From a virus (lineage: Duplodnaviria > Heunggongvirae > Uroviricota > Caudoviricetes), in the IMG/VR virus record IMGVR_UViG_2778261204_000006, positions 1 to 38,045 of that record: 38,045 bases of DNA; one strand, 5' to 3'. Position numbers and translations under genes: made by a program. Shown here piece after piece: positions 19,995-38,045 of the stretch (the stretch's first letter is position 1; each line of letters opens with the position of its first letter). The notes beneath the pieces were generated by a model. It was not told the origin of the DNA. It was given only the letters and a program-made list of their open reading frames with translations, and ran no database searches.

Positions 19995-20040
19995 GTTTTC
20001 TCTCTTCAGGCGGGTGATTTATCATTGCCAGCGAATGAGG

Positions 20041-20082: not shown

Positions 20083-20144
20083 AACCGCCCCCGGTTCACC
20101 ACATTGCTTTCCCTGTCCTTCTCCCCTGATGTTTTCTAAAGCAG

Positions 20145-20184
20145 ATTAAAATCGCCGGGCCTGCATTTCTCACAAACTGTCTCC
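20145..20184 (+). promoter_or_regulatory. candidate activator-dependent late promoter (head operon)
   Basis: ATTAAAATCG at 20145 and CTGTCTCC at 20177, 32 bp apart. Confidence 0.4.
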
Positions 20185-20208
20185 GACAACATAACGCGGG
20201 ACAGCAAA

Positions 20209-21324: not shown

Positions 21325-21338
21325 TTTAAGGAGAAATC

Positions 21339-22292
21339 ATGTCTGATTACTTAAAAGGTAAACGTGTCGTTGATCCGGTACTGACCAGTATCGCCCGAGG
21401 CTATAAAAATGCCGCATTCATTGGCGAACGTATTTTCCCCGTCGTGCTGACGGACAAGGAAGGCGTGCGTGTGCCGACCTTCGGGAAAACCGCCTTTGTG
21501 GAATATGACACTGAGCGTGCCGTCGGGGCGGACAGCAATGTTCTGGTCCGTGAGAAAACCGGCACGCTTGATCTGGTGCTGGGTGAGCACGATCTGGCTG
21601 CGCCGGTGGACTATCGCGAGCAGGCGGAGTCCATGTTTAACGAGGAGAGCAAGGCCATCCGTCGCGCCACGAATGGCGTGAATCTGCGCCGTGAACTTAT
21701 CGCCGCCCGTCTGGCTCAGGATGAAAAGGTCTACCGTACCGGGCACGTTAAAAAACTGACAGCCAGTGATCGCTGGGCCGGTGGTAAGGGGGACCCCATC
21801 GGGGTGATTGAAGCCGGTATGGAAGCGGTCCGTACGGCCACGGGGCTGCGTCCTAACCTGATGACCATGGGTGCCAGCGTGATGGCGCTGCTGAAGTTCC
21901 ACCCGGCGATTCAGGCTGCCATCGGAGCCAACGAACGCAAGCGCATCACTACGGAGATCCTGCAGGACCTCTTTCAGATCGAAGAGATCGTCATCGGTGC
22001 CCCTGTCTCCCTGCCATCCATGAAAGCGGCAATGGATAGGGACAGCGTGCCGGCGGATATCTGGGGAGACAACCTGATGCTGCACTACGTCGGCAAGCCG
22101 CAGCCGGGGGCGGACAGCGCGGACGAGAACGAGCCGTCCTTCGGCTACACCCTGCGCCGTAAGGGGATGCCTGTTGCAGACAAATACGACGGTGCCGGTG
22201 GCAAGGTGAAGTACTGCCGTTATACCGATATCTACAAAGTCGCCGTGGTTGGTGGCGATGCCGGGTATCTCATCACCGGTATCAGTAAATAA
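21339..22292 (+). CDS. major capsid protein (Mu T-like)
   Basis: 317 aa; strong AAGGAG RBS; position after protease/scaffold. Confidence 0.75.
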   Translation: MSDYLKGKRVVDPVLTSIARGYKNAAFIGERIFPVVLTDKEGVRVPTFGKTAFVEYDTERAVGADSNVLVREKTGTLDLVLGEHDLAAPVDYREQAESMFNEESKAIRRATNGVNLRRELIAARLAQDEKVYRTGHVKKLTASDRWAGGKGDPIGVIEAGMEAVRTATGLRPNLMTMGASVMALLKFHPAIQAAIGANERKRITTEILQDLFQIEEIVIGAPVSLPSMKAAMDRDSVPADIWGDNLMLHYVGKPQPGADSADENEPSFGYTLRRKGMPVADKYDGAGGKVKYCRYTDIYKVAVVGGDAGYLITGISK

Positions 22293-22301
22293 GGAGGCGT
22301 T

Positions 22302-22640
22302 ATGGGAACCACTCAGCAGGTCATTCTGATTACAACCGTAACGGCAGGGGCAGAACTGGCACAGCAGCGTTTTGTCGGGGCAGATAATACCCCCTGTAAA
22401 GCCGGTGCCGCAGCGCTCGGGGTTGCCGAAGTGGATGCTGTTACCGGCGACAGCACGCCGGTGAGCGTTCTGGGCATTATTGCTGTTGAGGCCGGTGCTG
22501 CGGTCAGCCGTGGTGTGGCTGTTCAGTCAGATGCTCAGGCCAGAGCCGTGCCGCAGTCCGGCGACGGTAAATCCTGTGGTATTGCACTTGATGAAGCCGG
22601 GGGTGAAGGCGACGTCATTCGTATCCTGCGCGGGGTGTGA
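22302..22640 (+). CDS. small head-associated protein (DUF2190-like)
   Basis: 112 aa Gly/Ala/Val-rich; AAGGAGG RBS. Confidence 0.5.
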   Translation: MGTTQQVILITTVTAGAELAQQRFVGADNTPCKAGAAALGVAEVDAVTGDSTPVSVLGIIAVEAGAAVSRGVAVQSDAQARAVPQSGDGKSCGIALDEAGGEGDVIRILRGV

Positions 22641-22641
22641 C

Positions 22642-23088
22642 ATGTACTGCACCCTGGAGGATTTGCTTGAGCAGGTGCCGGAACGAACGCTGATCGAGCT
22701 CACCAGTGAAGAGATGGACTTCGACTCGCCTGCGACAGTGAATACCCGTGTGGTGGAGAGCTGTATCCGCTATGCCGACGAGCTGATTGATGCCCATCTG
22801 CGCGGACGCTATATCCTGCCGCTGGCGGAGATACCGACCGTTCTGCGGGACATTGCCATCACGCTGGTCCGTTACCGGCTCTACGCCCGCCGCCCGGAAG
22901 GTGACCTCCCGGATACGGTGAAGGATGACCACAAAGAAGCGCTGCGGCAACTGAAGGAGTTACGTGATAACAGGCTTACGCTGGGGCTGCCGTCCACTCA
23001 GAAAGATATGCCTGAGCCAGGAGAGTTTCGTGTACGCAGCCGCCCGGCCACTTTCGGCGGTCGTGACGGCTTACTGGAGAAATACTGA
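22642..23088 (+). CDS. head-tail connector-like protein (Mu gp36/DUF1320-like)
   Basis: 148 aa from ATG 22642. Confidence 0.5.
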   Translation: MYCTLEDLLEQVPERTLIELTSEEMDFDSPATVNTRVVESCIRYADELIDAHLRGRYILPLAEIPTVLRDIAITLVRYRLYARRPEGDLPDTVKDDHKEALRQLKELRDNRLTLGLPSTQKDMPEPGEFRVRSRPATFGGRDGLLEKY

Positions 23089-23552
23089 TGAATGTTCTGC
23101 CCGTCCTTGATGCGGTGCTGGCCCGGTTGCGCGAGAAGCTGCCTCAGCTGCAGGTTGAGTACTTCCCGGAAAAGCCGTCCGAATACCGCCTCAATCATTC
23201 TGTCGGGGCGTTGCTGCTGAGCTATGCAGGATCGCGTTTCGACAGGCCGGATGATACCGGTGCGGTGATCCAGCCTCAGACTATCCAGCTCTGCGTCACG
23301 GTGGTCTTCCGACAGCTCAACGGTAAAAAAGGGGCGATTAATGTCCTGGATGCTGTCCGCCGCATTCTTGGTGGCTACACCCCGCCCGGGTGCCGCCGCC
23401 GTATCTGGCTGACCCGCGAGGTGTTTATCGGTGAAGTCAGGGGGCTGTGGCAGTACGCCCTCGACTTCGCGACTGAAAGCGTCTTTATCGAAGACAGCGA
23501 TTTACCGTCCGGCCCGCTGTTAACTGAAGTGAACTATGAGGAAAGCGAGTGA
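23088..23552 (+). CDS. head-tail joining protein (Mu gp37-like)
   Basis: 154 aa; TGATG coupling. Confidence 0.5.
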   Translation: MNVLPVLDAVLARLREKLPQLQVEYFPEKPSEYRLNHSVGALLLSYAGSRFDRPDDTGAVIQPQTIQLCVTVVFRQLNGKKGAINVLDAVRRILGGYTPPGCRRRIWLTREVFIGEVRGLWQYALDFATESVFIEDSDLPSGPLLTEVNYEESE

Positions 23553-23803
23553 TGAAAGAATACCGCTATTCCGGCCCGGCCAGCGGCGTCACGCTGTCGG
23601 ACGGAACCGAAATCCTGCTCTGGCCGGGGAAGACTGTTTCCCTGCCGGAGGAGCATGACTACGTGAAGGTACTGGTGGCGCTGAAGCATCTGACGCCGGT
23701 ATCTGAAGAAATTAAACCCGCCGGCACACCGGCTGTGCAGTCACCAAAGCGCAGGAACGGCGGTGACAGCGAGGTGAAAACGGAGGACGCCCATGTCAGC
23801 TAA
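23552..23803 (+). CDS. hypothetical protein
   Basis: 83 aa; overlaps the sheath start. Confidence 0.45.
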   Translation: MKEYRYSGPASGVTLSDGTEILLWPGKTVSLPEEHDYVKVLVALKHLTPVSEEIKPAGTPAVQSPKRRNGGDSEVKTEDAHVS

Positions 23804-25220
23804 CTATCTGCATGGTCCGGAAACCATTGAAGTGGAAAACGGTGCCCGCCCGGTTAAAACGGTGAAATCTGCCGTTATTGGCCTGATTGGTACCGCACCA
23901 ATGGGGGATGTCAATACGCTGGTACAGTGCCTGTCTGAGAAAGACGCTGCGGCATTTGGCAGCCAGTTCACCGGCTTTACCATTCCACAGGCGCTGGATG
24001 CGATTTATGACCATGGTGCAGGCACCGTTCTGGTCATTAACGTACTCGATCCGTCTGTGCATAAAACCGCTGTGGTCAGTGAGAATGTGTCGTTCGACAA
24101 GGCGACAGGCAGAGCCCGGCTGGCTAATCCGGTGGTCGCGCAGCTGGTACTGAAACCGGACAGCGACGGTCAGCCTTATGTTGAAGGTCAGGACTACTCG
24201 CTTGATGCACAGACCGGGGTGATTACTAACCTGGGTAAAAGCATTGCTGCAGATGCAACGGTGAAGGCCAGCTATAACTATGCTGATCCGACCAAAGTCA
24301 CCCCGGCTGATATCATCGGTACCGTTAACGCTGCAGGCAACCGTACCGGCATGAAGCTGCTTAACGACAGTTTTAACCTGTTTGGCTACTTCGCCAAAAT
24401 CCTGATTGCTCCGGTATTCTGCACCCAGAACAGCGTCTCGGTTGAGCTTATCGCCATGGCTGAGAAACTGGGAGCAGTAACCTATATTGATGCGCCGGTT
24501 GGTACCACTTTTGCGCAGGCTCTGGCGGGACGTGGCCCGGAAGGCACCATTAACTTTAATACCAGCTCTGACCGTGTCCGCCTGTGCTACCCGCATGTGA
24601 AGGTATATGACCCGGTGACGAACACGGAGCGTCTGGAGCCACTGAGCCAGCGTGCGGCGGGCCTGCGTGCCAGAGTCGACCTGGACAAAGGGTACTGGTG
24701 GTCATCCTCCAATCAGGAAATTCTGGGGATCACCGGCGTGGAGCGCCAGCTGTCGGCAATGATTGACGATCCGCAGAGCGAGGTTAACCTGCTTAACGAA
24801 CAGGGGATCACCACGGTATTCAGCAGTTACGGTAGCGGCCTTCGTCTGTGGGGTAACCGGACGGCAGCATGGCCAACGGTCACCCATATGCGTAACTTTG
24901 AGAACGTTCGCCGCACCGGTGATGTGATCAATGAGTCCATTCGTTACTTCAGCCAGCAGTACATCGACATGCCGATTACTCAGGCGCTGATTGATGCACT
25001 GACGGAGTCAGTCAACGCTTACGGTCGCAAGATGATTGGCGATGGTGCACTGCTGGGCTTCACTTGCTGGTTTGATCCGGCCCGTAATGAAGAGACGGAG
25101 CTTGCCGCCGGTCACCTGTTACTGAGCTACAAATACACGCCACCGCCACCGCTGGAGCGGCTGACGTTTGAGACTGAGATCACCTCGGAATATCTGTTAA
25201 CCCTGAAGGGGACCAGTTGA
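23793..25220 (+). CDS. contractile tail sheath protein
   Basis: 475 aa; GGAGGA RBS; followed by tube gene. Confidence 0.8.
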   Translation: MSANYLHGPETIEVENGARPVKTVKSAVIGLIGTAPMGDVNTLVQCLSEKDAAAFGSQFTGFTIPQALDAIYDHGAGTVLVINVLDPSVHKTAVVSENVSFDKATGRARLANPVVAQLVLKPDSDGQPYVEGQDYSLDAQTGVITNLGKSIAADATVKASYNYADPTKVTPADIIGTVNAAGNRTGMKLLNDSFNLFGYFAKILIAPVFCTQNSVSVELIAMAEKLGAVTYIDAPVGTTFAQALAGRGPEGTINFNTSSDRVRLCYPHVKVYDPVTNTERLEPLSQRAAGLRARVDLDKGYWWSSSNQEILGITGVERQLSAMIDDPQSEVNLLNEQGITTVFSSYGSGLRLWGNRTAAWPTVTHMRNFENVRRTGDVINESIRYFSQQYIDMPITQALIDALTESVNAYGRKMIGDGALLGFTCWFDPARNEETELAAGHLLLSYKYTPPPPLERLTFETEITSEYLLTLKGTS

Positions 25221-25741
25221 TGTCAAAGATTGAGATAAACCGCATCACGAATGCCAACATCTATCTGGATGGTGTAAACCTGCTGGGACGGGCTGAGGAG
25301 GTTAAACTCCCCGATGTCTCCATGATTATGCAGGAACATAAAGCGCTGGGAATGGTGGGTAAGGTGGAGCTCCCGGCTGGCTTCGACAAACTGGAAGGCG
25401 AAATCAAATGGAACAGCTTTTACCGCGATGCGATGCTGTCTGCCGCGAACCCGTATAAGTCGCTGGCACTGCAGTGTCGTTCCAGCGTCCAGCGCTACAG
25501 CTCGCAGGGGCTGATTGACGAAATCCCGCTGGTCACCTTCCTGACAATTATGTTCAAGAAGAACCCGATGGGAACGTTCAAACAGCACGAGAACGCCGAG
25601 TTCTCCAGTAGCTTCACCTGCACGTATATAAAACAGGTACTGGATGGTGAAGAGCTGCTGGAGCTGGACTATCTGGCCAACATCTTCCGCGTCGGTGGCG
25701 TTGATCAACTGACCGACTACCGCATCAATATCGGGGGCTGA
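25220..25741 (+). CDS. tail tube protein
   Basis: 173 aa; TGATG coupling to sheath. Confidence 0.75.
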   Translation: MSKIEINRITNANIYLDGVNLLGRAEEVKLPDVSMIMQEHKALGMVGKVELPAGFDKLEGEIKWNSFYRDAMLSAANPYKSLALQCRSSVQRYSSQGLIDEIPLVTFLTIMFKKNPMGTFKQHENAEFSSSFTCTYIKQVLDGEELLELDYLANIFRVGGVDQLTDYRINIGG

Positions 25742-25743
25742 CA

Positions 25744-26025
25744 GTGAGTGTTGAACTGACTGATAAAGGAGGTCGATGTGCAGCACTGGGCATGTCGAAC
25801 GGTACGTGGTTTACCCTTCTCGATATTCCGGGGGTGGAAACCCTTTTTAATACCCGTAAAACCAATGACCCGATTGACTGCACACGTTCAAAGGCCCGCA
25901 AACTGGCCGATTTGATTGAAGCATGGGAGCCGCCCGACCACTGGTTCTCCGGCACCGGCAAATCTGAGGGAAAGGCGCTTCTCATCGCTTTCCTGCGTAA
26001 CTGCAAGGGGTTTCGCACTTGCTGA
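25744..26025 (+). CDS. hypothetical protein (start uncertain)
   Basis: GTG start; in-frame ATG at 25792; followed by terminator hairpin. Confidence 0.3.
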   Translation: MSVELTDKGGRCAALGMSNGTWFTLLDIPGVETLFNTRKTNDPIDCTRSKARKLADLIEAWEPPDHWFSGTGKSEGKALLIAFLRNCKGFRTC

Positions 26026-26031
26026 TATCAC

Positions 26032-26055
26032 AGGGGCTCCGGCCCCTTTCTTCTT
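26032..26055 (+). terminator. rho-independent terminator
   Basis: AGGGGC-TCCG-GCCCCT hairpin followed by TTCTTCTT. Confidence 0.45.
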
Positions 26056-26062
26056 AATCTCC

Positions 26063-26101
26063 TTTAATATCCGTTGCGTCCACCGCCAGACATACTGCCC
26101 T
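26063..26101 (+). promoter_or_regulatory. candidate activator-dependent late promoter (tail operon)
   Basis: CCTTTAATATCC at 26061 and ACTGCCC at 26094; same 32-bp spacing as the other late motifs. Confidence 0.4.
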
Positions 26102-26123
26102 GAACTTACACAGGAGCACGATC

Positions 26124-26459
26124 ATGTCACAGACCCAGCCAGATACTTTTACGCTATCTTATCCTTTCACCACTGCTGCAGGTACCAGAATTGAACAGAT
26201 TGAACTGAAACGCCTGACGGTCAAAGACCTGAAGCAGGTGCGCAAAATCAGCAAAAACCCGGCAGACTGGGACGAACCGCTGATTGCCCGCAGTACCGGC
26301 CTTCTCCCGGAAGATCTTGACAATATGGATCTGGCTGATTACCTGCAGTTGCAGAAACGATTTCAGCTCATCACTGGGATGGGTGAGAGCAACGAAGGCG
26401 CTGACGCAGGCACAGGGGCTGCTGGCAAGGTGGTTCAGGTTTCAGCCGGGGGAGATTGA
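26124..26459 (+). CDS. tail assembly chaperone (P2 E / lambda G-like)
   Basis: 111 aa acidic protein immediately upstream of tape measure; AGGAG RBS; overlapped by an alternate-frame ORF 26284..26541. Confidence 0.55.
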   Translation: MSQTQPDTFTLSYPFTTAAGTRIEQIELKRLTVKDLKQVRKISKNPADWDEPLIARSTGLLPEDLDNMDLADYLQLQKRFQLITGMGESNEGADAGTGAAGKVVQVSAGGD

Positions 26460-26616
26460 TGCCCTCGATACTGACGATCTGGAGATGTGGCTGGAGCAGG
26501 CTGAAGAGCAAATCAGAAGCGAGTACGGCGACAAATCGTAGCACGGACAGCCGCCAGTGGCGGCTGTTCTGCGTTATCCCCTCACGTCTTTTCACCTTCC
26601 CCGGAGGTTAACCACT

Positions 26617-29094
26617 ATGTCGGGAAAGTTTTCAGTCGGCGTTGTTATCGGCGGGATGATTGGCAGCACATTCCGTTCTGCAATGAGCGGTACCCGCCGT
26701 GCGCTTGATTCCCTGAGCGATACCTCACGCCGCCTGCAGGAACGTCAGAACGCTTTAACCCGTGCAACAGAACGTTATGGTCAGTTGGGTTCTTCCCGGA
26801 TGCAGCGTCTCAACAGCGAGCTGCTGCGGGTAAGCCGCACCATGGAGCAAATTGAACGTCAGCAGCGCCGCCTGTCAGCAGCATCAGCGACCAGTGATGC
26901 GCTGAAAGCTAACCGCATGGCGCTGTATGGTCAGGGACTTGAAGCGTATGGCATGGCACAGACTGTTTATCATACGGTTTCCCCGGCCGTTCAGCAGTCC
27001 ATGTCTTTTCAGGATAAAATGATTGATATGTCGATCACCGCAAAATATGACAATAAAACGCGGGATGCACTTGCCGGACAGATAAAAGGCTGGGCGCTTA
27101 AATACAATCAGTATCAGGATGAGCTGCAGGAGGCGGTGGGTTCGCTCATCAGCGACAATATTGATAATGTGTCAGATATCGGTTTTCTGATGCCGGATAT
27201 TGCCCGCGCGGCAACGGCAACACGCACGTCTGCTCAGGACTGGGCAAAAGTGGCCGCAGTCTGGCAAAATTCCCTGAAAGGTGCGGCCAGCGATTTTGGT
27301 GCTGTCCAGAATATTATGGCTTATGCCGGTGACCAGGGGTCATTTGAAATCCCGGATCAGGTCAAATGGATGCAGTCCCTGGCCCCAATGATGGAGGGTG
27401 TTGCCAGCGGGAAAGAGGCTGTTGCTGAAATCGGTGCCAGTCTCCAGATAGCAAAAATCGGTGCGGGCTCCACCGATGAAGCAGCCAATAACTTTAAAAA
27501 CTTCCTTACCAAAATTTTTGCCCGTGATACTCAGAAACAGTTTGCTGATCTGGGTATTGATTTGCAGGGTTCTATTGCGAGTTATAAAGCTGCGGGGATC
27601 TCTCCGATTGAAGGGATGTTGAGTGTGATAGAACGTTACCTCAATGCCAAAAGCCCCGAAGCGCTGGCCGGCTTCAAATCCGCCATGAAAATAAAGAATG
27701 ATACGGCAAGAGATGAGGCACTTCAGGCTCTGGCGAAAAACTTTGGTCTGGGCGATATGTTCGCGGATATGCAGGTCATGGCATTTATCCGCCCGATGCT
27801 GGCAAACATGGACAGATATCGCGAGATCCGTGCCGGTGCTCTCAGGGCAGCCGATAACGATTTGCTTGCCAGTGCGTATGATCAGCGGCTGAAATCCCCC
27901 CTTGAAGCCACCAAAGCGCTGGCAGTCAACAGTCGGGATCTGGCAATTACGCTGGGCGATCAATTAGCCCCGTCTTTTATTTCTCTGACTCAGGAGCTGC
28001 TCCCACTCATTCAGGGGGCAAAACACTGGGTAGCGACTCACCCGCAATTTGTCAGTGGGGCTTTTAAGCTTATCAGTGCGCTCCTTGCGATTAAGATAGC
28101 GACTATTGGTCTCAAACTGGGGCTGAATCTCCTTATTTCCCCCTTTGTAAGTGTCTGGAAAAATGCTGTTTTACTTCGGGCCAACTGGCTTCGTCTGATG
28201 CTCGCACTGGGGGAAGGCGGTAAACTCCGCTGGCTGGTGACAGGCTTTGGTGCCGTCGCCAGAGGCGCCAGAACACTGGGGGGGGTGCTCTCAGGGGGGC
28301 TGGTTCGCGGAATTATGAGCGCCGGGCGTGCCGTTCTCTGGATTGGCCGGGCGCTGATGATGAATCCCATCGGTCTCGCTATCACCGCCGTCGCGGCAGC
28401 AGCTTACCTTATCTACCGCAACTGGGGCGCGGTCAGTAGCTGGTTTAAACAGCGCTGGGCTGACATTCAGGAAGCCTTTAACGGCGGTATCGCGGGAACT
28501 GGTAAACTGCTGGTTAACTGGTCTCCGGCAGGTCTGCTTTATAAAGCCTTTGCGGCTGCGCTGAAATATCTCGGCGTTGATTTGCCGGCGAAATTCACCG
28601 ACTTCGGTGGTCATCTTATTGACGGGCTGATAAATGGCATCAGAAACAAATGGGAGTCACTGAAAACCAGCATAACCGGAATGGGTGACAGCATCAGTGA
28701 CTGGTTCAGCGAAAAGCTGGGCATCCATTCACCGAGTCGCGTGTTTATAGGCTTTGGTGACAATATCGCGCAGGGTGCCGCCATTGGCCTGCAACGGACC
28801 ACTCCGCTTGCTGCACTGGCCGGGCAGCGCCTGGCCGCTGAAATGACACCGGATGTTCCCCGTATCCCGTCGCCGGAAATCATGGCTGCCGGATATTCAG
28901 GCCGTGGCGCAACTGCAACCGGCGGTGGAGCGTCTGGCGGTATCCAGGTCAGCTTTAATCCTCAGTTTTTCCTCAATGGTAAGGAAACCGCAGCGCCTGC
29001 CGGGCTGGCTGGTGCCCTGAATATGAGCCTGCATGAGCTGGAAAAAATGCTGGAGCGTCTGCTGGCTCAGAAACAACGTAAGGAGTACAGCTGA
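26617..29094 (+). CDS. tail tape measure protein
   Basis: About 825 aa, helical and Gly/Ala-rich with hydrophobic segments; GGAGG RBS before ATG 26617. Confidence 0.85.
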   Translation: MSGKFSVGVVIGGMIGSTFRSAMSGTRRALDSLSDTSRRLQERQNALTRATERYGQLGSSRMQRLNSELLRVSRTMEQIERQQRRLSAASATSDALKANRMALYGQGLEAYGMAQTVYHTVSPAVQQSMSFQDKMIDMSITAKYDNKTRDALAGQIKGWALKYNQYQDELQEAVGSLISDNIDNVSDIGFLMPDIARAATATRTSAQDWAKVAAVWQNSLKGAASDFGAVQNIMAYAGDQGSFEIPDQVKWMQSLAPMMEGVASGKEAVAEIGASLQIAKIGAGSTDEAANNFKNFLTKIFARDTQKQFADLGIDLQGSIASYKAAGISPIEGMLSVIERYLNAKSPEALAGFKSAMKIKNDTARDEALQALAKNFGLGDMFADMQVMAFIRPMLANMDRYREIRAGALRAADNDLLASAYDQRLKSPLEATKALAVNSRDLAITLGDQLAPSFISLTQELLPLIQGAKHWVATHPQFVSGAFKLISALLAIKIATIGLKLGLNLLISPFVSVWKNAVLLRANWLRLMLALGEGGKLRWLVTGFGAVARGARTLGGVLSGGLVRGIMSAGRAVLWIGRALMMNPIGLAITAVAAAAYLIYRNWGAVSSWFKQRWADIQEAFNGGIAGTGKLLVNWSPAGLLYKAFAAALKYLGVDLPAKFTDFGGHLIDGLINGIRNKWESLKTSITGMGDSISDWFSEKLGIHSPSRVFIGFGDNIAQGAAIGLQRTTPLAALAGQRLAAEMTPDVPRIPSPEIMAAGYSGRGATATGGGASGGIQVSFNPQFFLNGKETAAPAGLAGALNMSLHELEKMLERLLAQKQRKEYS

Positions 29095-29978
29095 TGTTTG
29101 CCGTACTGGGTGATATTGAGTTTGAACTGATTACCTACTGGGACGGCTTCGAGGCCACGTTTGGCGTAGATTATGCGGAGCATGCCCGCATCGAGGGTAA
29201 ACCCGGCCTGCAGTTCGTCGGCGACAGGCTGGACGAAATCCAGATAAGCCTGGTCTTCCATCAGCATTATTGTGTGCCCGACGTGGAGCTGGCGAGAGTG
29301 CGAACAGCCATGAAGGCCCATCAGGCACTGGCGCTGGTCTTCGGCAACGGTGACTATCGCGGCTGGTTCGTGATTACCGATGTGACCGCAACCAGCGAGC
29401 AGACAGACAGCACCGGTAACGTGCTGGCTGTCAGTGCCACCGTGTCTCTCCGGGAATACACCGGTGACCCGAAAAATCCTCTGCAACCGCCGGCAATACG
29501 CAGGCAGGTTCCCGGTGCCGGGGCCGTATCTGGTGCTGTTCCATCGCCTTCCGGGGTGGCGCAGTTCGTCCGTAACGGCGTCAACTATGCGAAACAGGCG
29601 CAGTCTGTACTCCAGACCACTATCAGTGCCGTTCGGGTGGCGCAGAAAATGAAGGGTAACCCCGTTGTCGCGCTGACCCGTGTGCCGGGACTGATGAGCG
29701 GACTGGGTAATATATCCGGAGCTCTGGGGAAAAGTGTTCCGGCGTTTAATGCACTCTCAGAATCCATGCCCGATGCCATCAGTCTGGCCAGAACAGCCAG
29801 TGAGGCAGCCACGTATGTACAGCAGGCGCAGTCGGCGCTGAGTGGTGTGGACAAAAGAAATATTGCAGGTGCTCTGGATACCGTTTCCGGGCAGCTTAAC
29901 GCCGCCGGCACAGCATTCAACCGCATGTCTCCGGGATTAAGTGCAATGGCCGCCAGAATACTGACGAGGAGTGTGTGA
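29094..29978 (+). CDS. tail protein (Mu N / P2 U-like)
   Basis: 294 aa between tape measure and gpX/gpD-like genes; AAGGAG RBS. Confidence 0.5.
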   Translation: MFAVLGDIEFELITYWDGFEATFGVDYAEHARIEGKPGLQFVGDRLDEIQISLVFHQHYCVPDVELARVRTAMKAHQALALVFGNGDYRGWFVITDVTATSEQTDSTGNVLAVSATVSLREYTGDPKNPLQPPAIRRQVPGAGAVSGAVPSPSGVAQFVRNGVNYAKQAQSVLQTTISAVRVAQKMKGNPVVALTRVPGLMSGLGNISGALGKSVPAFNALSESMPDAISLARTASEAATYVQQAQSALSGVDKRNIAGALDTVSGQLNAAGTAFNRMSPGLSAMAARILTRSV

Positions 29979-30190
29979 TGTTTCTTGAACATATTACCCG
30001 TGACGGAGAGCGCTGGGATTCGCTGGCATGGCAGTACTACGGTGACCCGCTGGGCTATCCCCGGATTATTGCAGCCAATCCGCACGTGGCCATCACGCCG
30101 GTGCTGCCCTCCGGGCTGTTGTTACTGATTCCGGTTATCGAGGCTGAAGAAGCCAGTACAGAAGAGGATATTGCCCCATGGCTGAGATAA
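29978..30190 (+). CDS. tail protein X-like
   Basis: 70 aa; RWDSLAWQYYGD segment resembles P2 gpX; GAGGAG RBS. Confidence 0.6.
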   Translation: MFLEHITRDGERWDSLAWQYYGDPLGYPRIIAANPHVAITPVLPSGLLLLIPVIEAEEASTEEDIAPWLR

Positions 30191-31347
30191 ACAGCACTGC
30201 ACAAGCCGCATCAGCGTTAACCGGCGTCAGCGATGTTCTGAGTCCGGTGTTCACGCTGTGGTATCTGCAGAAGAACATCACCACCGATATCGCCCCCTAT
30301 GTCACCCGCGTAACCTACAGCGATAACATCAAAAGCGAGTCCGATACCATTGAGGTGGAACTGGACGACACCGATGGCCGCTGGCTGGATAAGTGGTATC
30401 CGGGCAAGGGTGACACGCTGACGCTGAAAATGGGTTATCAGGGCGAGAAGCTGCTGTCCTGCGGTACGTTCTCTATAGACGAGATCGAGGTGAGTTCGCC
30501 CGCGTCCGTTGTCGCTATCCGGGGCGTGGCCACGTCGGTCAACAACGCCCTGCGGACAAAATCCAGTCGTGGTTTCGAGAGCACCACGCTGGCGGCCATC
30601 GCCGGACGGATTGCCAAAAAGCATCAGCTGAAGCTGGTTGGCAGTATTGAGTCCATCAAAATTGACCGGGTGACCCAGTATGCTGAAACGGACGTGGGCT
30701 TCCTGCGCCGACTGGCCAGCGAGTATGGTTATGCCGTGAAAGTGGTCAGCGACCAGCTGGTTTTTTCTCATCTTGCCACGTTGCGCGGTCAGGAGCCGGT
30801 CAGGCAGTTAAAGCCGCAGGATGTGGCCAGCTTTTCCCTGCGTGACACCATCAACCGCGTCTACAAATCCGCGAAGGTAAAACACCAGAAGAGCAGCGAT
30901 AAAAAGCTGATCGTTTATGAAGCTGATGGCGGTACCAGCGAAAGCGACAAACAAACCAAAGGCGGTAAGGTCACCAGTGCCGACTCACTGAAGGTCAACA
31001 GCCGCGTCAGTGACCCGGACAGCGCCCGGATTAAAGCAGATTCGGCGCTGGCCAGGCATAACGAATACCAGCAGAACGGCTCCCTGACGCTGATGGGGAC
31101 GCCCCAGTTGACTGCAGGCAACAAAATTGAACTGGTGGGCTTTGGTCAGTTATCCGGGCCATGGCTGATAACCACTGCCCGCCATGCGTTTGATCGTAAC
31201 AGCGGCTACATCACCGAACTGGAAGTGGCACGAGGGCCGGTCACGCAGGGCAAGGCGAAGAAAGGTAAAAAGACTGGCAAAACCCAGACGCTGACCGTCT
31301 ATCAACCGGACGGCAGTACGTCCACGGTAATAAAGGAGAAGAAATAA
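30178..31347 (+). CDS. tail/baseplate hub protein (P2 gpD / Mu P-like)
   Basis: 389 aa; ETDVGFLRRLA segment typical of gpD family. Confidence 0.8.
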   Translation: MAEINSTAQAASALTGVSDVLSPVFTLWYLQKNITTDIAPYVTRVTYSDNIKSESDTIEVELDDTDGRWLDKWYPGKGDTLTLKMGYQGEKLLSCGTFSIDEIEVSSPASVVAIRGVATSVNNALRTKSSRGFESTTLAAIAGRIAKKHQLKLVGSIESIKIDRVTQYAETDVGFLRRLASEYGYAVKVVSDQLVFSHLATLRGQEPVRQLKPQDVASFSLRDTINRVYKSAKVKHQKSSDKKLIVYEADGGTSESDKQTKGGKVTSADSLKVNSRVSDPDSARIKADSALARHNEYQQNGSLTLMGTPQLTAGNKIELVGFGQLSGPWLITTARHAFDRNSGYITELEVARGPVTQGKAKKGKKTGKTQTLTVYQPDGSTSTVIKEKK

Positions 31348-31859
31348 TGGCAGGCGTCACCCGTCAGGTCGGTACGGTCAGCGCCGTCGATGCCGACAAG
31401 GTACAGGCCCGTGTTCGTTTGCCGGAATGCGATAACCTGCGCACTAACTGGCTTAACGTGCTGCAGCGCAATACCCAGGATAACAAGGATTACTGGCTCC
31501 CTGACGTGGGGGAGCAGGTTGAGGTGCTGCTCGATGCCAACGGCGAGGATGGCGTCATTCTGGGCGCGGTGTACTCAGAAGTCGATAAACCGCCGTTCAG
31601 CGACAAAAATGTCCGGGGCACAAAATACGCTGATGGTGCTGAGTTCAGCTATAACCGCGCGACCCATACGCTGACGGTTAAAGGCGGTATCGAGCATGTG
31701 GTGATCGAGGTTGCGGTGGGTATCAACCTGAAGGGGAAAACTATTGATTTGACCGCTGACACCACCACGGTGAACGGCGACCTTGAAATCAACGGCAATG
31801 CCCACTCGACAGGCAGCATGCTCTCTGACGGCCAGAACTCCAATCATCACTCCCACTGA
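31347..31859 (+). CDS. baseplate spike protein (gpV-like)
   Basis: 170 aa; AAGGAGA RBS. Confidence 0.8.
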   Translation: MAGVTRQVGTVSAVDADKVQARVRLPECDNLRTNWLNVLQRNTQDNKDYWLPDVGEQVEVLLDANGEDGVILGAVYSEVDKPPFSDKNVRGTKYADGAEFSYNRATHTLTVKGGIEHVVIEVAVGINLKGKTIDLTADTTTVNGDLEINGNAHSTGSMLSDGQNSNHHSH

Positions 31860-31873
31860 CCTTCTTAAACGCC

Positions 31874-31912
31874 TTTAATATCGGCGTTCCCGCACAGGGG
31901 CAATACTGCCCC
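31874..31912 (+). promoter_or_regulatory. candidate internal late promoter upstream of the baseplate W gene
   Basis: CCTTTAATATCG at 31872 and ACTGCCC at 31905, 32 bp apart. Confidence 0.35.
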
Positions 31913-31913
31913 C

Positions 31914-32261
31914 ATGAAAACAACCTCAGTATTCTGGCAACCGGCTCTGCAGGCCCCCGGCGAAATCGTCCGGGGGCTGGATGATATCTGGCAGGCTATT
32001 CAAATCATCCTGCGTACTCCTCGCGGCAGCGACCCGCATCGCCCGGAGTTCGGCAGCAATCTGCACCTTTATATCGACTGGCCTATTGACCGGGCCATTC
32101 CGCATGTGGTGCGCGAATCCGTCGATGCCATCCGCAGCTGGGAGCCTCGCTGCCAGCTTATGTCGGTCAAACCCGCCGTCGACGGCGAACATCTTACGCT
32201 CCGGGTGAGCTGGAAAGGCTCTGACGGACAGCCCCGGACTCAGGAGTTGCTATGGCGCTGA
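31914..32261 (+). CDS. baseplate protein W (GPW/gp25 family)
   Basis: 115 aa; IILRTPRGSDPHRPEFGSNLHLYIDWP motif. Confidence 0.8.
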   Translation: MKTTSVFWQPALQAPGEIVRGLDDIWQAIQIILRTPRGSDPHRPEFGSNLHLYIDWPIDRAIPHVVRESVDAIRSWEPRCQLMSVKPAVDGEHLTLRVSWKGSDGQPRTQELLWR

Positions 32262-33355
32262 CAGAACCCGATTTTATTGAACGTGATGCCGACAAAATCA
32301 CGGCTGAAATGATTGCTCAGTACGAAGCCGCAACCGGCAAGACGCTGTACCCCGCTCAGGCTGAGCGCCTGTTGATTGACCTGTGGGCATACCGCGAAAT
32401 GCTGGTCAGGGTAGCGGCGCAGGAAGCGGCCAAACAGAATCTGGTCGCCTTTGCCCGTGAGCCGATGATTGATTACCTCGGTGAACTGGTCGGTGTATAT
32501 CGCCTGGCCGCACAGCCTGCCACCACCACGCTCCAGTTCTCCGTGGATGAGGCACTGGCCATTGACGTGCTGATTCCGGCGGGTACCCGCGTCAGTGCTT
32601 CCGACAGCATCATTTTTGCCACCGACACGGACGTGGTGTTAAAGGCCGGATTGCTGCTGGTCAATACCACGGCCACCTGTACCGAGCCGGGGGCCGCTGG
32701 CAACGGCTGGCAGCCTGCACAGGTCAGTCAGTTGCTCGATGAAATTGATAACGTCGACCTGCAGGTGACCAATCTGGCGGCCAGTTCTGGCGGTTCAGAG
32801 CAGGAAGACAATGACAGGCTCCGCGAGCGTATCAAGCTGGCCCCGGAGTCATTCACCAACGCCGGAAGCCGTATGGCATACCGCTTTCATGCCATGCAGG
32901 CCCATCCCAACATCGTCGATGTTGCGGTGCTTTCCCCGGTTCCCGGCACCGTAGAACTGTATCCGCTGCTCAGCACCGGCCTGCCGGACGACAGCATCCT
33001 CACGCTGGTAGAGAGTTTCTGCTCGGACGAAAAAGTCAGGCCGCTCACTGATACCGTGCGGGCTAAAACACCTGTGCAGGTGGATTACGCCATTGAGGCC
33101 AACATCACTATCTATCGTGATCAGGATGCCAACTCGATAAAGGACAGCGCCAACAGCGCCATACAGAACTGGGTGGCGTCCCGTACCGCCACGCTGGGGC
33201 GCGATATTGTCCCCAGCCAGATTATCAGCGTTCTGTCCGTTACCGGGGTCTATCAGGTCGAACTGGTGACACCGGTGCTGAAGGTGGTGGCAGAAAACGA
33301 ATGGGCAAACTGTACGGCGATCACTCTTAACATGACCGGGGTGTCCGATGGCTGA
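32252..33355 (+). CDS. baseplate protein J
   Basis: 367 aa; follows W as in P2/Mu baseplate modules. Confidence 0.8.
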   Translation: MALTEPDFIERDADKITAEMIAQYEAATGKTLYPAQAERLLIDLWAYREMLVRVAAQEAAKQNLVAFAREPMIDYLGELVGVYRLAAQPATTTLQFSVDEALAIDVLIPAGTRVSASDSIIFATDTDVVLKAGLLLVNTTATCTEPGAAGNGWQPAQVSQLLDEIDNVDLQVTNLAASSGGSEQEDNDRLRERIKLAPESFTNAGSRMAYRFHAMQAHPNIVDVAVLSPVPGTVELYPLLSTGLPDDSILTLVESFCSDEKVRPLTDTVRAKTPVQVDYAIEANITIYRDQDANSIKDSANSAIQNWVASRTATLGRDIVPSQIISVLSVTGVYQVELVTPVLKVVAENEWANCTAITLNMTGVSDG

Positions 33356-33926
33356 GCCGTTACAACTTCCGCCACCGCTTGAGGGTGATATCAGCCTCAG
33401 AACGCTGGGAAGACTGGCCGGGCGGCTGGATAACATCGACCTGAGCGTACTGATGGTCTATCTCGTCGATATTGTCGACAGTTCCGCGCTGCCATGGCTG
33501 GGCGAGCAGTGCTCGCTGTTCGGCGATGGCTGGGAGTTGGCGGAGTCGGACGATGTACGCCGCATGCTTATCAAATCCGCTATCGAGCTGCACCGCTACA
33601 AAGGGACGCCGTGGTCAATCCGGGAAATCATCCGCCGTTTCGGCTTTGGCGAAGTGGATCTGATTGAAGGCACTGGCCAGATCGGCTACGACGGCAAACA
33701 CACTTACAACGGGCTTTTCGTCCATGGCGATGCAGAAGCCTGGGCGGTCTATCGCGTCATTCTTCAACAGCCCATCACTAACGATCAGGCCGCGTTGTTA
33801 CGCCAGACGCTCGCTGCTTTTGCTCCGGCCCGCTGCCATCTGGCGAGCCTTGAGTATCAGTCTGTCGCCATTCGCTACAACAACACCGTCAACTACGACG
33901 GCAGCTATAACCACGGGAGCAGTTAA
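33348..33926 (+). CDS. tail protein I-like (baseplate)
   Basis: 192 aa; follows J. Confidence 0.7.
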   Translation: MAEPLQLPPPLEGDISLRTLGRLAGRLDNIDLSVLMVYLVDIVDSSALPWLGEQCSLFGDGWELAESDDVRRMLIKSAIELHRYKGTPWSIREIIRRFGFGEVDLIEGTGQIGYDGKHTYNGLFVHGDAEAWAVYRVILQQPITNDQAALLRQTLAAFAPARCHLASLEYQSVAIRYNNTVNYDGSYNHGSS

Positions 33927-33928
33927 TT

Positions 33929-34771
33929 ATGGCAAACCTACCTGAAACCCCGCAGTGGGAAGACGGCATCTATCAGATTGAGGTCTCTGACCCCGTTCTG
34001 GGCGGGCCTGACGGGATTTCTAACCGCCAGGGTAAACAACTGGCCAGCCGCACGCTGTACCTGAAACAACAGGTTGAGAAAGGCGGTACAGACCTTGCGA
34101 AACACATCGCGGCAGCAGACCCGCATACACAGTACGCACCGAAAGCCAGCCCGACATTCACCGGCACGCCAACAGCGCCCACGCCTGCAAATAGCGATAA
34201 CAGCAAGAAGCTGGCGACGACGGAGTTTGTGGCCAAAGCACTTGCGGCGCTTGCAGGCAGCGCCCCTGAAACGCTGGATACGCTTAAAGAGCTGGCGGAT
34301 GCCCTCGGTAACGATCCGAATTTTGCGACCACGGTGCTTAACAAACTGGCGGAGAAGCTGGCCAAAGACCAGAACGGCGCAGATATTCCTGACCCGGCGC
34401 TCTTTGTCAAAAACCTTGGTTTAGGGGAATCGGCGAAAATGCCTGCTGCGACAGCATTGGCCAGCAGTGCTGGTAACATCGCTATTCCAGTATTAATTGG
34501 TGGAGTACAACGAACAGCACTGCTTCAGTGGAAGATGGTATCAGTGCCGCAATCAGCAGACGGTAACATGGTAGTGGTTGACGACTCATGGCCGGTTGCC
34601 TTTCCTAATGCTTGCCTTTCCATCAATCCTTCGCTGTCCAGTTCTTTGATTTACGCGACCAGTGGAGCACCTTTTGTCAGCGCAGCGATTGTTGACCGGG
34701 TCAAATTCAAAGCCGCTTGCGCATACACGAAATCTAATTCAACAGTAACAGTATGGGGAGTGGGATATTAA
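33929..34771 (+). CDS. tail fibre protein (constant N-terminus plus currently expressed variable C-terminus)
   Basis: 280 aa; crossover repeat lies in frame at codons KNLGLGE; C-terminal part inside invertible segment. Confidence 0.75.
   Translation: MANLPETPQWEDGIYQIEVSDPVLGGPDGISNRQGKQLASRTLYLKQQVEKGGTDLAKHIAAADPHTQYAPKASPTFTGTPTAPTPANSDNSKKLATTEFVAKALAALAGSAPETLDTLKELADALGNDPNFATTVLNKLAEKLAKDQNGADIPDPALFVKNLGLGESAKMPAATALASSAGNIAIPVLIGGVQRTALLQWKMVSVPQSADGNMVVVDDSWPVAFPNACLSINPSLSSSLIYATSGAPFVSAAIVDRVKFKAACAYTKSNSTVTVWGVGY
34408..34429. repeat. left inverted repeat (gix/hix-like recombination site) CAAAAACCTTGGTTTAGGGGAA
   Basis: 22-bp perfect match to the reverse complement of 36241..36262. 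Confidence 0.75.
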
Positions 34772-35214
34772 TGACAGACTATGTATTCAGCCCGGCTGAA
34801 AATGCTTTTTATCTTGTGGCACTGAAAGACGATTATTTATCTGCTGGCACATGGCCGTCAGACGGCATCAATATAGATGCTGAAGATGCGCTAGTTTTCA
34901 TGGGGGTGCCTCCCGAAGGTAAAGTGCGTGGCATTGGTGATGATGGGTTGCCTTGCTGGGCTGATCTTCCGCCACCTACGCATGAAGAACAACTCGCAGC
35001 GGCTGACTCAGAAAAGCAGTCGAGAATTGACCAGGCCAACGATTATATGAATGGTAAGCAGTGGCCTGGCAAAGCAGCAATCGGGCGACTGAAAGGTGAC
35101 GAACTGGCTCAGTATAATTTGTGGCTTGATTATTTGGATGCGCTGGAAGCGGTTGATACTGCCAGCGCGCCAAATATCAATTGGCCTACACCTCCGGTCG
35201 GGCAGGCCAGCTAA
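34771..35214 (+). CDS. tail fibre assembly protein (Tfa/U-like)
   Basis: About 147 aa from ATG 34771 (TAATG overlap with fibre stop); conserved Tfa C-terminal pattern. Confidence 0.75.
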   Translation: MTDYVFSPAENAFYLVALKDDYLSAGTWPSDGINIDAEDALVFMGVPPEGKVRGIGDDGLPCWADLPPPTHEEQLAAADSEKQSRIDQANDYMNGKQWPGKAAIGRLKGDELAQYNLWLDYLDALEAVDTASAPNINWPTPPVGQAS

Positions 35215-35788
35215 CATCAGGAGCCGTCGAAACATCGACGGCTTTAACTGCAGTTTTATAAGCCATCCACGATGACAGTTTCTTTTTGCTTTCTTCGCTG
35301 ATATCACCGAGCATCAGCTCTACCCGCCAATCCGAGGTAAGATCATCTACCTGAGCGAGGAGCGTTTGTCGGTGTTGTTCTGCATCAGCAATATCACCTT
35401 GATGTTTTGCAGCAGAATCCGTGACCCATTTATCTCCGTCCCATTTATCATACGGTGATGCTGGAGCTGTGGGGGTTGTACCTTCGGGATAATCTCCCAG
35501 TGCCGTCACTACAACCTGTTGCATTGTCTCAATGTTATAAACGGTTTGACCTCTGTGATCGGTTATATATTCCCATGATGAAAGGTCTGCTGTACGGCAA
35601 ATGGCAAAACCCTCATTATTTTCACCTGGAGCATCAATGCAAGAATTGGCAGGAATACCAACCCCCACGGCGAGATACTCAACGGTTGAAGACAGATATT
35701 CAAGCGTCTCACCATCGAAGTTATAGACGGTGATTTCCCCTGCAACTATAGCGATCATGTCCTGGTTTAATTCAGCTTTAGCCATCAT
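35186..35788 (-). CDS. alternative tail fibre assembly protein (Tfa', inverted orientation)
   Basis: 200 aa; C-terminus VDVSTAPDVSWPARPEV parallels the plus-strand Tfa C-terminus. Confidence 0.7.
   Translation of the reverse strand: MMAKAELNQDMIAIVAGEITVYNFDGETLEYLSSTVEYLAVGVGIPANSCIDAPGENNEGFAICRTADLSSWEYITDHRGQTVYNIETMQQVVVTALGDYPEGTTPTAPASPYDKWDGDKWVTDSAAKHQGDIADAEQHRQTLLAQVDDLTSDWRVELMLGDISEESKKKLSSWMAYKTAVKAVDVSTAPDVSWPARPEV
35223..35250 (+). terminator. hairpin terminator candidate at the convergence point inside the invertible segment
   Basis: GCCGTCG-aaacat-CGACGGC 7-bp stem followed by TTTAACTGCAGTTTTAT. Confidence 0.35.
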
Positions 35789-36262
35789 GCAGCCCTCACA
35801 ATGTAGTTAAATGCAATATTCCGCGCACGGGTTTCTGTCGCTGTTCGTACTGAGCGGGAGGCATCAAACGTCCAGTTTGCAGCACCATATCCACCATCAG
35901 TGGACGGAGTTAAACCTAAGGATAAAAGCATTCCATCCTGACGGAATGGGCCGGAGTAAACGGTATCCTTGAAAAGCTGAGTGCGACCAAACGAACCGAC
36001 AATGTTCTGGATGGAGTCTGACTGAGCAGACAATAGGCTACGCCCCGTATCAACTCCGCGCCCGTCATCCCATCCACGGATAAACTCCCCGCGTAGATCA
36101 GGCAGTCTGAGCGCCGGATAGGCCAGTGCCAGCTTAGGGTACTGGGAGGCGGTAAACGCAGCCCCATTGCATTTGAGCCACCCTGTTGGTGGTGTCGCTG
36201 ACGGCCATGGAATGGGCACGCCAACCGGCAATGCAGAGCCTTCCCCTAAACCAAGGTTTTTG
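35785..36262 (-). CDS. alternative tail fibre C-terminal segment (Sv'-like), promoterless until inversion
   Basis: Reading frame through the right repeat encodes KNLGLGE as in the plus-strand fibre, then a distinct C-terminal domain (PDLRGEFIRGWDDGRGVD). Confidence 0.65.
36241..36262. repeat. right inverted repeat (gix/hix-like recombination site)
   Basis: TTCCCCTAAACCAAGGTTTTTG, reverse complement of 34408..34429. Confidence 0.75.
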
Positions 36263-36328
36263 GAAAAGCGGTTACACATAGCGAAATCTGTAAAAATCCT
36301 CCCGCCGCGACATAGAGGAGGAGAATTG

Positions 36329-36910
36329 ATGGCCGTCATTGGTTATATCCGTGTATCAACAATCGACCAGAACAGCGATTTACAGCGTAATGCACTCACA
36401 AGCGCAAACTGTGACCGCATTTTTGAAGACCGCATGAGCGGAAAAGTTGCCAGCCGCCCCGGTCTGAAACGCGCTTTAAAGTGCGTTAATAGCGGAGACA
36501 CCCTGGTCGTGTGGAAACTGGACAGGCTGGGGCGCAGCGTTAAGAACCTGATCGCACTGATATCAGAGTTACATGAACGCGGTGCCCACTTCCGCTCTTT
36601 AACAGACAGTATTGATACCAGCACAGCCATGGGGCGTTTCTTTTTCCATGTGATGTCGGCACTGGCGGAGATGGAACGTGAACTGATCGTCGAACGAACA
36701 CTGGCCGGGCTGGCAGCGGCCAGAGCACAGGGACGCATAGGTGGAAGGCCCAACGCATTAAAGCCGCATGAGCAGGAACAGATTGGGCGGCTATTGGCTA
36801 AGGGGCATACCCGCCAGCAGCTGGCCATTATCTACGGGGTGGGGTTATCTACACTCTACCGGTATTTTCCGGTAGATGGTCAGAGGAAGGATGACGCGAT
36901 AGGATTGTAA
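36329..36910 (+). CDS. serine recombinase DNA invertase (Gin/Hin/Pin/Cin family)
   Basis: 193 aa; N-terminus YIRVSTIDQNSDLQRNAL with catalytic Ser; TLVVWKLDRLGRS and C-terminal HTH; GAGGAGGAG RBS. Confidence 0.9.
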   Translation: MAVIGYIRVSTIDQNSDLQRNALTSANCDRIFEDRMSGKVASRPGLKRALKCVNSGDTLVVWKLDRLGRSVKNLIALISELHERGAHFRSLTDSIDTSTAMGRFFFHVMSALAEMERELIVERTLAGLAAARAQGRIGGRPNALKPHEQEQIGRLLAKGHTRQQLAIIYGVGLSTLYRYFPVDGQRKDDAIGL

Positions 36911-36944
36911 TTCTTTTGCAAATATTGAAACGCCGCAGCGGTGC

Positions 36945-36987
36945 CATTTATCTCACGGAATGGGCGCATTTATCGCGCGGCGCATCA
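36945..36987. repeat. prophage right terminus with two CATTTATC motifs 22 bp apart (candidate transposase-binding sites)
   Basis: Motifs at 36945-36952 and 36967-36974; element ends ...GCGCATCA at about 36987. Confidence 0.5.
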
Positions 36988-38045
36988 GTCATCAGGCCGA
37001 GCGTAATCGTACCGGCAACAATTGACGGAAACAGCAAGAACAAACCGAAAACGTTATCGACCTGCAAATAGAGAATGCGGGCGATGTTGAAATACATATA
37101 GTGAAAATAGAGGCGAAAATAGTTTTTCCGTACGGCGCTAAACAGCTCGCGTACCGTAGGCGGCGTCGCGCGCGTGGCATCGTCTTCACCATAAACCAGC
37201 TCTTTACGGTAGGCGGCCTCTACTCGCTGGTTTTTAAACTCCAGCCCCGGCAGTTTGATCCCTACCACTGCCAGCAATCCGGTCCCCATCAGCGACCAGA
37301 CGATAGCGGCAATCACCAGACCATACGGAATGTGCCCGATAATCGGCAGCTCCGGCACATGCGCGGAGAGCGTTACCAGCACCGGCAGGAAGGCGATCAA
37401 CGTCATGATGGCGTTGATAAAACTGACGCCCATATTCTCCAGCGTTGAAGCAAAACGCATGGTGTCTTCCTGCACACGCTGTGCGGCACCTTCGATATGA
37501 CGCAGTTGTTGCCAGTTCGCCATGTAATATTCGTTCATCGCCGTACGCCAGCGGAACACATAGTGACTGACAAAGAAGTTGTTCAGTACACTGATCACCA
37601 CCGCGATCAGCGCAATCCCCAGAAAGACGCCCACTTCGCGGTAAAATTGTTCGATAGTGACTTTATGCGGCGAACTTAGCGCGGTTTGAATCAGATCATA
37701 GAACGGTGCATACCAGGCGTTGACGGCGACCCCGACTTCCACCAAAAACCAGGTGACGAAGATGATCAGTGCAGTACCGAGTATTGACCAGTATTGCCAA
37801 CGGTGCGGGCTGTAGATAAACCAGAAAAATGCAAAAAGTCCTACGCAAACAATGTAGTAAGCGTAAAAAATCAGGAAATCCAACGACCAGAAACGCGCGG
37901 CGCTAATCGGGATCTGCCCGGAAGCGCCGGTGATACGCGCCACCCAGTCACCCCCACCGGCTTGCCAGAAGATAACGGCAATCAATGCCCAAACAAAGGC
38001 CGAGAGAAAAAACGCTCCCGGCTTTGGGAAAAAAGACTTAAACAT
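36948..38045 (-). pseudogene. sbmA: sbmA (peptide antibiotic transporter) truncated by prophage insertion; last 13 codons are phage-derived
   Basis: Translation matches recalled SbmA from [10 protein letters not shown] through about residue 352 (…TITLGLMT), then diverges to [12 protein letters not shown] and stops at 36948. Confidence 0.7.

Follow-up and report, generated by a model that had tools for sequence, protein, structure and literature searches.

The coliphage Mu, the 'mutator' phage, inserts nearly at random into host genes by means of a DDE-transposase, produces a short target duplication, which in its case comprises 5 bp, and inactivates the affected gene upon lysogeny. In Mu proper, the early operon is co-directional with the late genes and the transposase is of the MuA type. 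Transposable phages of the Mu type do not excise precisely. Active lysogeny, exemplified by the Listeria phage phi10403S in comK, relies on a site-specific integrase and on a precise excision which restores the host gene. The B3-like phages are characterized by an inverted early operon and their lysogens, as those of Mu, include auxotrophs caused by insertion (PMC5977238). For the elements related to BcepMu, TG...CA termini are characteristic (PMC2628397). The known null alleles of sbmA, of laboratory or natural origin, comprise Tn, IS, nonsense and point mutations. Among those that arose under selection are two insertions, one of 1.4 kb resulting in W27stop and another of 600 bp (PMC10145973), and the nonsense mutation Glu282stop (PMC9723568).

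In this study we analysed a window of 38,045 nucleotides, meaning the whole stretch of DNA, which contains nearly all of a transposable prophage and the adjoining 5′ part of sbmA from E. coli. We regard it as highly probable that this prophage, located in codon 353 of sbmA, leaves its host with a non-functional importer and the phenotype expected of an sbmA null strain. With Mu and the B3-like phages the element shares a transposase-mediated, near-random integration, a short duplication, TG...CA termini and a stable insertion with inactivation of the gene, whereas its BcepMu/B3-type transposase, its inverted early operon and a duplication of 6 bp set it apart from Mu. The resemblance to BcepMu comprises an rve-type transposase with identical map position and strand, an ATPase of the 'ExeA family' and the 5′-TG...CA-3′ termini. 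However, the immunity region as well as the tape-measure and tail-fibre modules differ from those of the BcepMu and PhiKM relatives, and the location in sbmA is unique with respect to the 5,426 complete genomes searched.

Compared to the sbmA nulls selected by MccB17, PrAMPs or PNA conjugates, the importer would equally be lost through disruption of the reading frame, but here by a whole prophage of 37 kb and with a very late break (codon 353 of 406). Like phi10403S in comK, the prophage resides within a host gene whose function would be abolished; unlike phi10403S, it possesses only a DDE transposase and an invertase serving the tail-fibre segment, belongs to a family with random insertion sites and lacks any means of excising precisely. 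A reversible switch in the sense of active lysogeny was rejected in view of the missing integrase, the transpositional termini with their duplication and the insertion sites, which are all different. The case is one of ordinary insertional mutagenesis: gene mutation by transposable phages and the resistance of sbmA nulls are both established, and it is the allele itself that is new. A prior report of sbmA disrupted by a Mu-like prophage was not found in our literature search, which likewise yielded no paper on the accessions of the source assemblies.

The insertion point in sbmA

The window originates from the E. coli assembly GCA_002468025.1, where it is wholly contained in contig NMNK01000003.1. 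A minus-strand ORF from the ORF list of the window (36948..38045) encodes 365 amino acids, consisting of residues 1-353 of SbmA followed by 12 phage-encoded residues. In the comparison with the PF05992 profile (SbmA_BacA; E=1.7e-144) this ORF covers profile positions 1-275 of 315; the other 40 are absent, and 12 unrelated residues stand in their place. The cryo-EM structure of SbmA (PDB 7p34_A) aligns with residues 1-353 (E=1.8e-235) and diverges thereafter. On DNA level, numerous complete E. coli genomes carry annotated intact sbmA genes with 100% identity to positions 36988-38045 of the minus strand; the end of the window at 38045 coincides with the ATG of sbmA.

The homology to sbmA stops exactly at 36988. 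Therefore, bases 36948-36987 belong to the prophage and not to sbmA, and the junction between host and phage lies at 36987/36988. The same bases recur in 10 independent right ends of the phage, apart from a spacer that is shorter by 1 nt. At the junction itself, the third base of codon 353 is contributed by the phage, which changes ACG to ACT and keeps the threonine. The original prediction had assigned the whole span 36948-38045 to the disrupted gene and had estimated the loss at about 50 C-terminal residues. While the ORF of this extent is real, its sbmA part is restricted to 36988-38045 and the junction is not at 36948; the estimate of the loss turned out to be close, with exactly 53 residues (354-406) missing according to the homology boundary and the 7p34_A alignment. 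The features are compiled in Table 1.

Table 1. Position and supporting evidence of the features discussed in the text (window coordinates).
Feature	Position	Strand	Evidence or remark
sbmA 5′ part (codons 1-352 and first two bases of codon 353)	36988..38045	-	DNA identity, PF05992, 7p34_A alignment
End of fusion ORF in prophage DNA (third base of codon 353, 12 foreign codons, TAA stop)	36948..36987	-	Translation
Target-site duplication, right-hand copy, 6 bp	36988..36993	GTCATC on +, GATGAC in sbmA sense (codons L351-M352-T353)	Same hexamer directly after phage left end
BcepMu/B3-like transposable prophage, part within the window	1..36987		366 bp of left end outside window
DDE (rve) transposase, 589 aa	6166..7935	-	PF00665; phrog_310 transposase, E=2e-146
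MuB-like transposition ATPase (AAA_22, annotated 'ExeA family')	4989..6155	-	PF13401; phrog_296 DNA transposition protein; annotation in relative
Gin/Cin-like serine DNA invertase, 193 aa, last gene before right end	36329..36910	+	Resolvase and HTH_7 domains; phrog_125 DNA invertase
Invertible tail-fibre segment, about 1.9 kb	34402..36268		28-nt inverted repeats, 93% complementary
Prophage right terminus, ending ...GCGGCGCATCA-3′	36911..36987	+	Ten independent right ends stop at ...ATCA, then diverge

On the source contig, ampH is located upstream of sbmA, as in K-12-like genomes, and the 3′ remnant of sbmA together with yaiW is found beyond the other end of the prophage, in the order ampH-sbmA-yaiW. 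To the left of the window edge, the contig continues with 366 bp of further phage DNA ending in ...TGTCTGATCA. The phage end is directly followed by GATGACGCAGATTACC..., which corresponds to sbmA codons 352-406, and then by yaiW. The full length of the prophage on this contig is 37,353 bp. The hexamer GATGAC is present at both junctions (36988-36993 in the window and, beyond the left end, 10990-10995 of locus L009) and occurs once in wild-type sbmA. When the 37,353-bp prophage is excised in silico together with one of the two hexamers, an intact ORF of 406 amino acids is obtained, which matches 7p34_A over residues 1-406. The earlier claim of an sbmA gene disrupted by prophage insertion is hereby confirmed, by both junctions, the 6-bp duplication and the restored reading frame.

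As the source is a draft assembly, we considered whether the junction might be an assembly chimera, with sbmA actually intact in the organism. The probability of this is negligible, since both junctions were found and agree in their 6-bp duplication, the positions of the phage termini coincide exactly with those in 20 other insertions and a second, independent assembly contains the allele as well. This second assembly, GCA_002468035.1, carries the identical junction, which is therefore not an assembly artefact, and an assembly error is excluded for practical purposes. In none of the 5,426 complete E. coli genomes searched was this junction present.

Gene content, termini and relatives of the prophage

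Apart from the transposase and the ATPase, the prophage carries accessory genes of the families PF07352 (Phage_Mu_Gam), PF06252 (GemA) and PF08765 (Mor) and a late region of myovirus type with genes for sheath, tube, baseplate and tape measure. The early genes (1-9745) and the late genes lie on opposite strands. A DDE transposase is combined with an AAA+ ATPase, and a site-specific integrase was not detected among the prophage genes; the sole serine recombinase is the invertase adjoining the invertible segment. Compared to the transposase of Pseudomonas phage B3, that of the prophage is 56% identical; for BcepMu the value is 68%, and for Escherichia phage PhiKM it reaches 98.8%. Of the 69 records found by tblastn with the transposase (E<=1e-5), neither the organisms nor the matches shown included coliphage Mu. 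The inserted element is a transposable phage of the BcepMu/B3 type and Mu-like sensu lato. Coliphage Mu proper (Muvirus) was ruled out by the transposase family, the gene order and the 6-bp duplication, and an attachment-site-using prophage of the lambdoid or P2 type was discarded because the gene set is transpositional instead.

Within the invertible segment, tail-fibre and assembly ORFs form opposed pairs. Segment and invertase together (34402-36268 and 36329-36910) resemble the G-segment cassette of Mu. At the other end of the prophage, the last gene (window 1-624, minus strand) encodes a protein of 207 amino acids without Pfam match (phrog_12870, function unknown), whose N-terminal half seems hydrophobic by eye. 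It is preceded by a strong terminator-like hairpin at 660-692 in a moron-like layout, and many phage copies have kept it. In the left end outside the window (L009 10643-10867), a promoter-like site was noticed, TTGAAA-18-TAGAAT (10 of 12 positions matching). It faces inward and points to a serine/lysine-rich ORF of about 50 amino acids, which is found at L001 5832-5984 and has a gene call in L007.

For a definition of the termini, 10 independent left ends and 10 independent right ends from other genomes were aligned. All of them stop at exactly 5′-TGAT...ATCA-3′ with unrelated flanks beyond and, the sister assembly aside, all insertion contexts are different. The right terminus contains two direct repeats of ATTTATC(T/G)C(A/G)CGG (36946-36958 and 36968-36980) as putative transposase-binding sites. 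The motif ATTTATCTCACGG occurs twice per end, the left-end copies being in inverted orientation. Between the right-end repeats (window 36959-36967) we found GGAATGG, as compared to GGAAATGG in nine other copies, and the spacer has 22 nt here and in the sister assembly GCA_002468035.1, versus 23 nt in nine right ends and in the left ends. An outward-facing ATG lies 10 nt inside the left end (ATG TCT GAT CA, then host DNA). At the sbmA locus it opens an ORF of 59 amino acids composed of MSDQ and SbmA residues 352-406 (L009 10980-11159). From this left-end ATG, gene callers start an ORF into the host fragment in three of ten insertion contexts (L009, L006 and L012; position 10980).

The deletion of 1 nt in the spacer could impair transpososome assembly and thereby the mobility of the prophage, which raises the question whether the element is still a live prophage. 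If not, it would represent a fixed insertion mutation: the sbmA lesion would be the same and only the term lysogen would have to be revised. We consider this unlikely. Both termini are present, all 57 CDS of the intact-looking relative in strain CFS3292 have counterparts of the same length here, and PhiKM, with a transposase that is 98.8% identical, was deposited as an isolated phage. Judged by its gene complement, the prophage thus looks intact.

The relative in CFS3292 (NZ_CP026935.2) is inserted in codons 2-4 of malZ with a duplication of ATGCAT (L001 5632-5637 and L023 6865-6870), and the target duplication has a length of 6 bp in both insertions examined (GATGAC in sbmA, ATGCAT in malZ). 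RefSeq calls a full-length malZ gene of 604 amino acids in this strain, using a non-ATG (CTG) start inside the phage end (L001 5600-5660); this call is an annotation artefact masking a probable N-terminal disruption.

Related prophages were detected in 646 of the 5,426 complete E. coli genomes (about 12%), and the closest isolated phage is Escherichia phage PhiKM with approximately 94% nucleotide identity over 90% of the first 25 kb. Since the insertion sites are unrelated to each other and the 646 related prophages lack the sbmA junction, sbmA is a chance target, struck by near-random transposition and not by site-specific integration. The possibility of sbmA being an attachment site was rejected on the grounds that insertion sites in this family are all different and that the junction is absent from other complete genomes.

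Mosaic differences from the CFS3292 relative occur in the repressor, tape-measure and fibre modules only. The tape-measure protein (26557-29094) is about 63% identical to its counterpart, where other proteins reach 95-100%. A similar value of about 63%, again against 95-100% for the rest, was noted for the protein at 19431-19994, the CFS3292 counterpart of which is annotated as 'phage virion morphogenesis protein'. The identity of about 63% in these modules indicates an exchange of modules within the phage family. Furthermore, the immunity region at 9557-10180 is unlike that of the relatives. It contains a putative repressor of 117 amino acids (9827-10180, plus strand) with marginal HTH matches and 85% identity to the CFS3292 repressor over half of its length, and a neighbouring DNA-binding protein of 62 amino acids is 73% identical to that of the relative. 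This suggests an immunity type different from that of the CFS3292 prophage.

Consequences of the truncation for SbmA

Eight TM helices (TM0a, TM0b and TM1-6) make up the SbmA protomer, which is modelled in 7P34 as far as residue 391 (Ghilarov et al. 2021, PMC8442886). The cavity is lined by TM6, a broken helix (6a/6b) that gives the central funnel its shape; the first internal (central) gate is formed by Y368 at the lower end of TM6a, E378 is part of the glutamate/proton-relay ladder, and in the dimer TM5/6 touch TM1′/2′ (PMC8442886). The E378A variant showed no transport in proteoliposomes and, at low expression, conferred resistance on the level of a delta-sbmA strain, but retained slow transport when over-expressed (PMC8442886). 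A 2026 alternating-access study described L349 as a residue of the periplasmic gate and TM6b's C-terminal end as part of the cytoplasmic gate (PMC13316013).

The truncated SbmA ends 4 residues past L349, and Y368, E378, R385 and the rest of TM6 are absent. Of the features expected from a functional importer, neither the full PF05992 core nor the set of eight TM helices including TM6a/6b is retained. Projected onto the structure, the truncation is predicted to take essentially all of the membrane-crossing TM6 as well as parts of both the cytoplasmic gate and the dimer interface. Because the lost segment is the TM6a/6b core with gate, ladder and interface residues, it is not a dispensable tail. 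SbmA(1-353)+12 is very likely a loss-of-function protein, and the allele a null allele. The original prediction had assumed that the loss of the C-terminus probably inactivates transport, and the identification of the lost segment as TM6a/6b with Y368 and E378 argues for this assumption. Taken singly, the features of the segment are not absolutely essential, as over-expressed E378A retains slow transport. A truncation of SbmA or BacA near residue 353 was not found in our full-text literature search, outside the scope of which were Corbalan 2013, LeVier & Walker 2001 and Puckett 2012. Alignment-free modelling of the truncated protein by AlphaFold2 gave a mean pLDDT of 51.7 and a pTM of 0.31, which is too poor for a determination of TM5/TM6 boundaries.

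The following sequence of events is proposed. A BcepMu/B3-like prophage of 37,353 bp would have entered the chromosomal sbmA gene at codon 353 by transposition, with duplication of 6 bp of target DNA. The upstream fragment would then encode residues 1-353 of SbmA and 12 phage residues, devoid of Y368, E378 and the TM6b part of the cytoplasmic gate. Without its half of the TM5/6-TM1′/2′ dimer interface, the truncated SbmA would presumably no longer function as a proton-coupled importer. The downstream codons 352-406 and yaiW would come to lie 37 kb away from the sbmA promoter, and the classical sbmA-null phenotype would be the consequence.

It could be argued that SbmA(1-353)+12 is active enough, either alone or through fragment complementation, to keep the lysogen sensitive. 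This would be compatible with the E378A and Y368A single mutants, which are not fully dead at high expression, and with the prediction of the 59-aa ORF by a gene caller (L009 10980-11159); moreover, a simple scan of the outward strand from the last phage gene to the left end yielded no terminator-like site. On the other hand, the same kind of scan yielded no promoter-like site on the outward strand, neither ATG of the small ORF is preceded by a Shine-Dalgarno-like sequence, and an outward-reading early operon would be expected to be repressed in a lysogen. The counts in this left-end scan for promoters and terminators were no higher than in shuffled controls, so that little can be deduced from it about read-through into yaiW. 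The large fragment lacks the whole TM6, so that its C-terminus would be left periplasmic and the lining of the cavity and the dimer interface would be lost. Residual activity is therefore considered very unlikely, and we maintain the interpretation as a null allele.

Expected phenotype and further copies of sbmA

Loss of sbmA is known to cause resistance to MccB17, MccJ25, bleomycin, Bac7, PR-39, PNA and PPMO (PMC6722960), and resistance by sbmA loss of function was likewise reported together with the structure (PMC8442886). Insertions in sbmA arise under PrAMP selection and are a common route to resistance, the PrAMP resistance of the nulls being partial and dependent on the medium (PMC10145973). 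Mutations in sbmA and yaiW have also been linked to mild streptomycin resistance (PMC9723568). For the strain analysed here, a reduced susceptibility is expected to microcins B17 and J25, bleomycin, klebsazolicin, proline-rich peptides such as Bac7, PR-39, apidaecins and oncocins, and (KFF)3K-PNA or PPMO, and the lysogen possibly exhibits a mild tolerance towards aminoglycosides.

The prophage places 37 kb between the sbmA promoter and yaiW, a co-transcribed lipoprotein gene, the expression of which is probably lost by polarity. Loss of yaiW was shown to lower the sensitivity to Bac7 and to add up to about 2-fold resistance to KFF-PNA (PMC6284057; PMC13469510), and the separation of yaiW may thus add to the phenotype. 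As these phages use transposition for their replication and do not excise precisely, the insertion in sbmA is in effect irreversible. For this reason a 'cured' strain is unrealistic as a control for susceptibility assays, and complementation with sbmA, either alone or together with yaiW, is the proper control.

A natural lineage of E. coli is hence predicted to be refractory to SbmA-dependent agents, including Api137, oncocins and KFF-PNA antisense antibiotics. Widespread BcepMu-like prophages can create such resistance alleles in the wild without exposure to drugs, which bears on estimates of pre-existing resistance for PrAMP and asobiotic candidates. The practical value of the finding is modest and conceptually it raises no new question. 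The sbmA::prophage allele is found in at least two assemblies. That it was selected in nature by microcin producers or by proline-rich peptides of the host, and persists clonally, appears quite doubtful to us; if this were true, BcepMu-like prophages, with their occurrence in about 12% of genomes, would constitute a natural source of resistance alleles for peptide antibiotics and antisense PNA.

The expected phenotype would also remain absent if a second intact sbmA copy, for example on a plasmid, compensated for the disrupted one. Such copies exist: in the 5,426 complete E. coli genomes, 28 matching places were located on plasmid records, and 38 matching records were obtained from PLSDB, including ETEC O169:H41 plasmids of about 145 kb and a plasmid of 16.6 kb. 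However, the base rate is low, with a median of one place per genome and a maximum of two in the 5,426 genomes, several of the PLSDB 'plasmids' are records of 1-5 Mb and likely mislabelled chromosomes, and a further copy was not seen within the approximately 58 kb of the source contig examined. Compensation by a second copy is accordingly extremely improbable, and the prediction of an sbmA-null strain is retained.

Large-scale natural disruption of sbmA is rare, as at least 80% of the sbmA fragment from the window is present in one piece in 5,417 of the 5,426 complete genomes. One natural disruption was observed in strain SWYH.B349aT, where the IS4-like element ISVsa5 is inserted in sbmA. As regards the genuine plasmids in PLSDB, intact sbmA genes reside on ETEC O169:H41/O27:H7 plasmids of about 130-150 kb and on the 16.6-kb plasmid.
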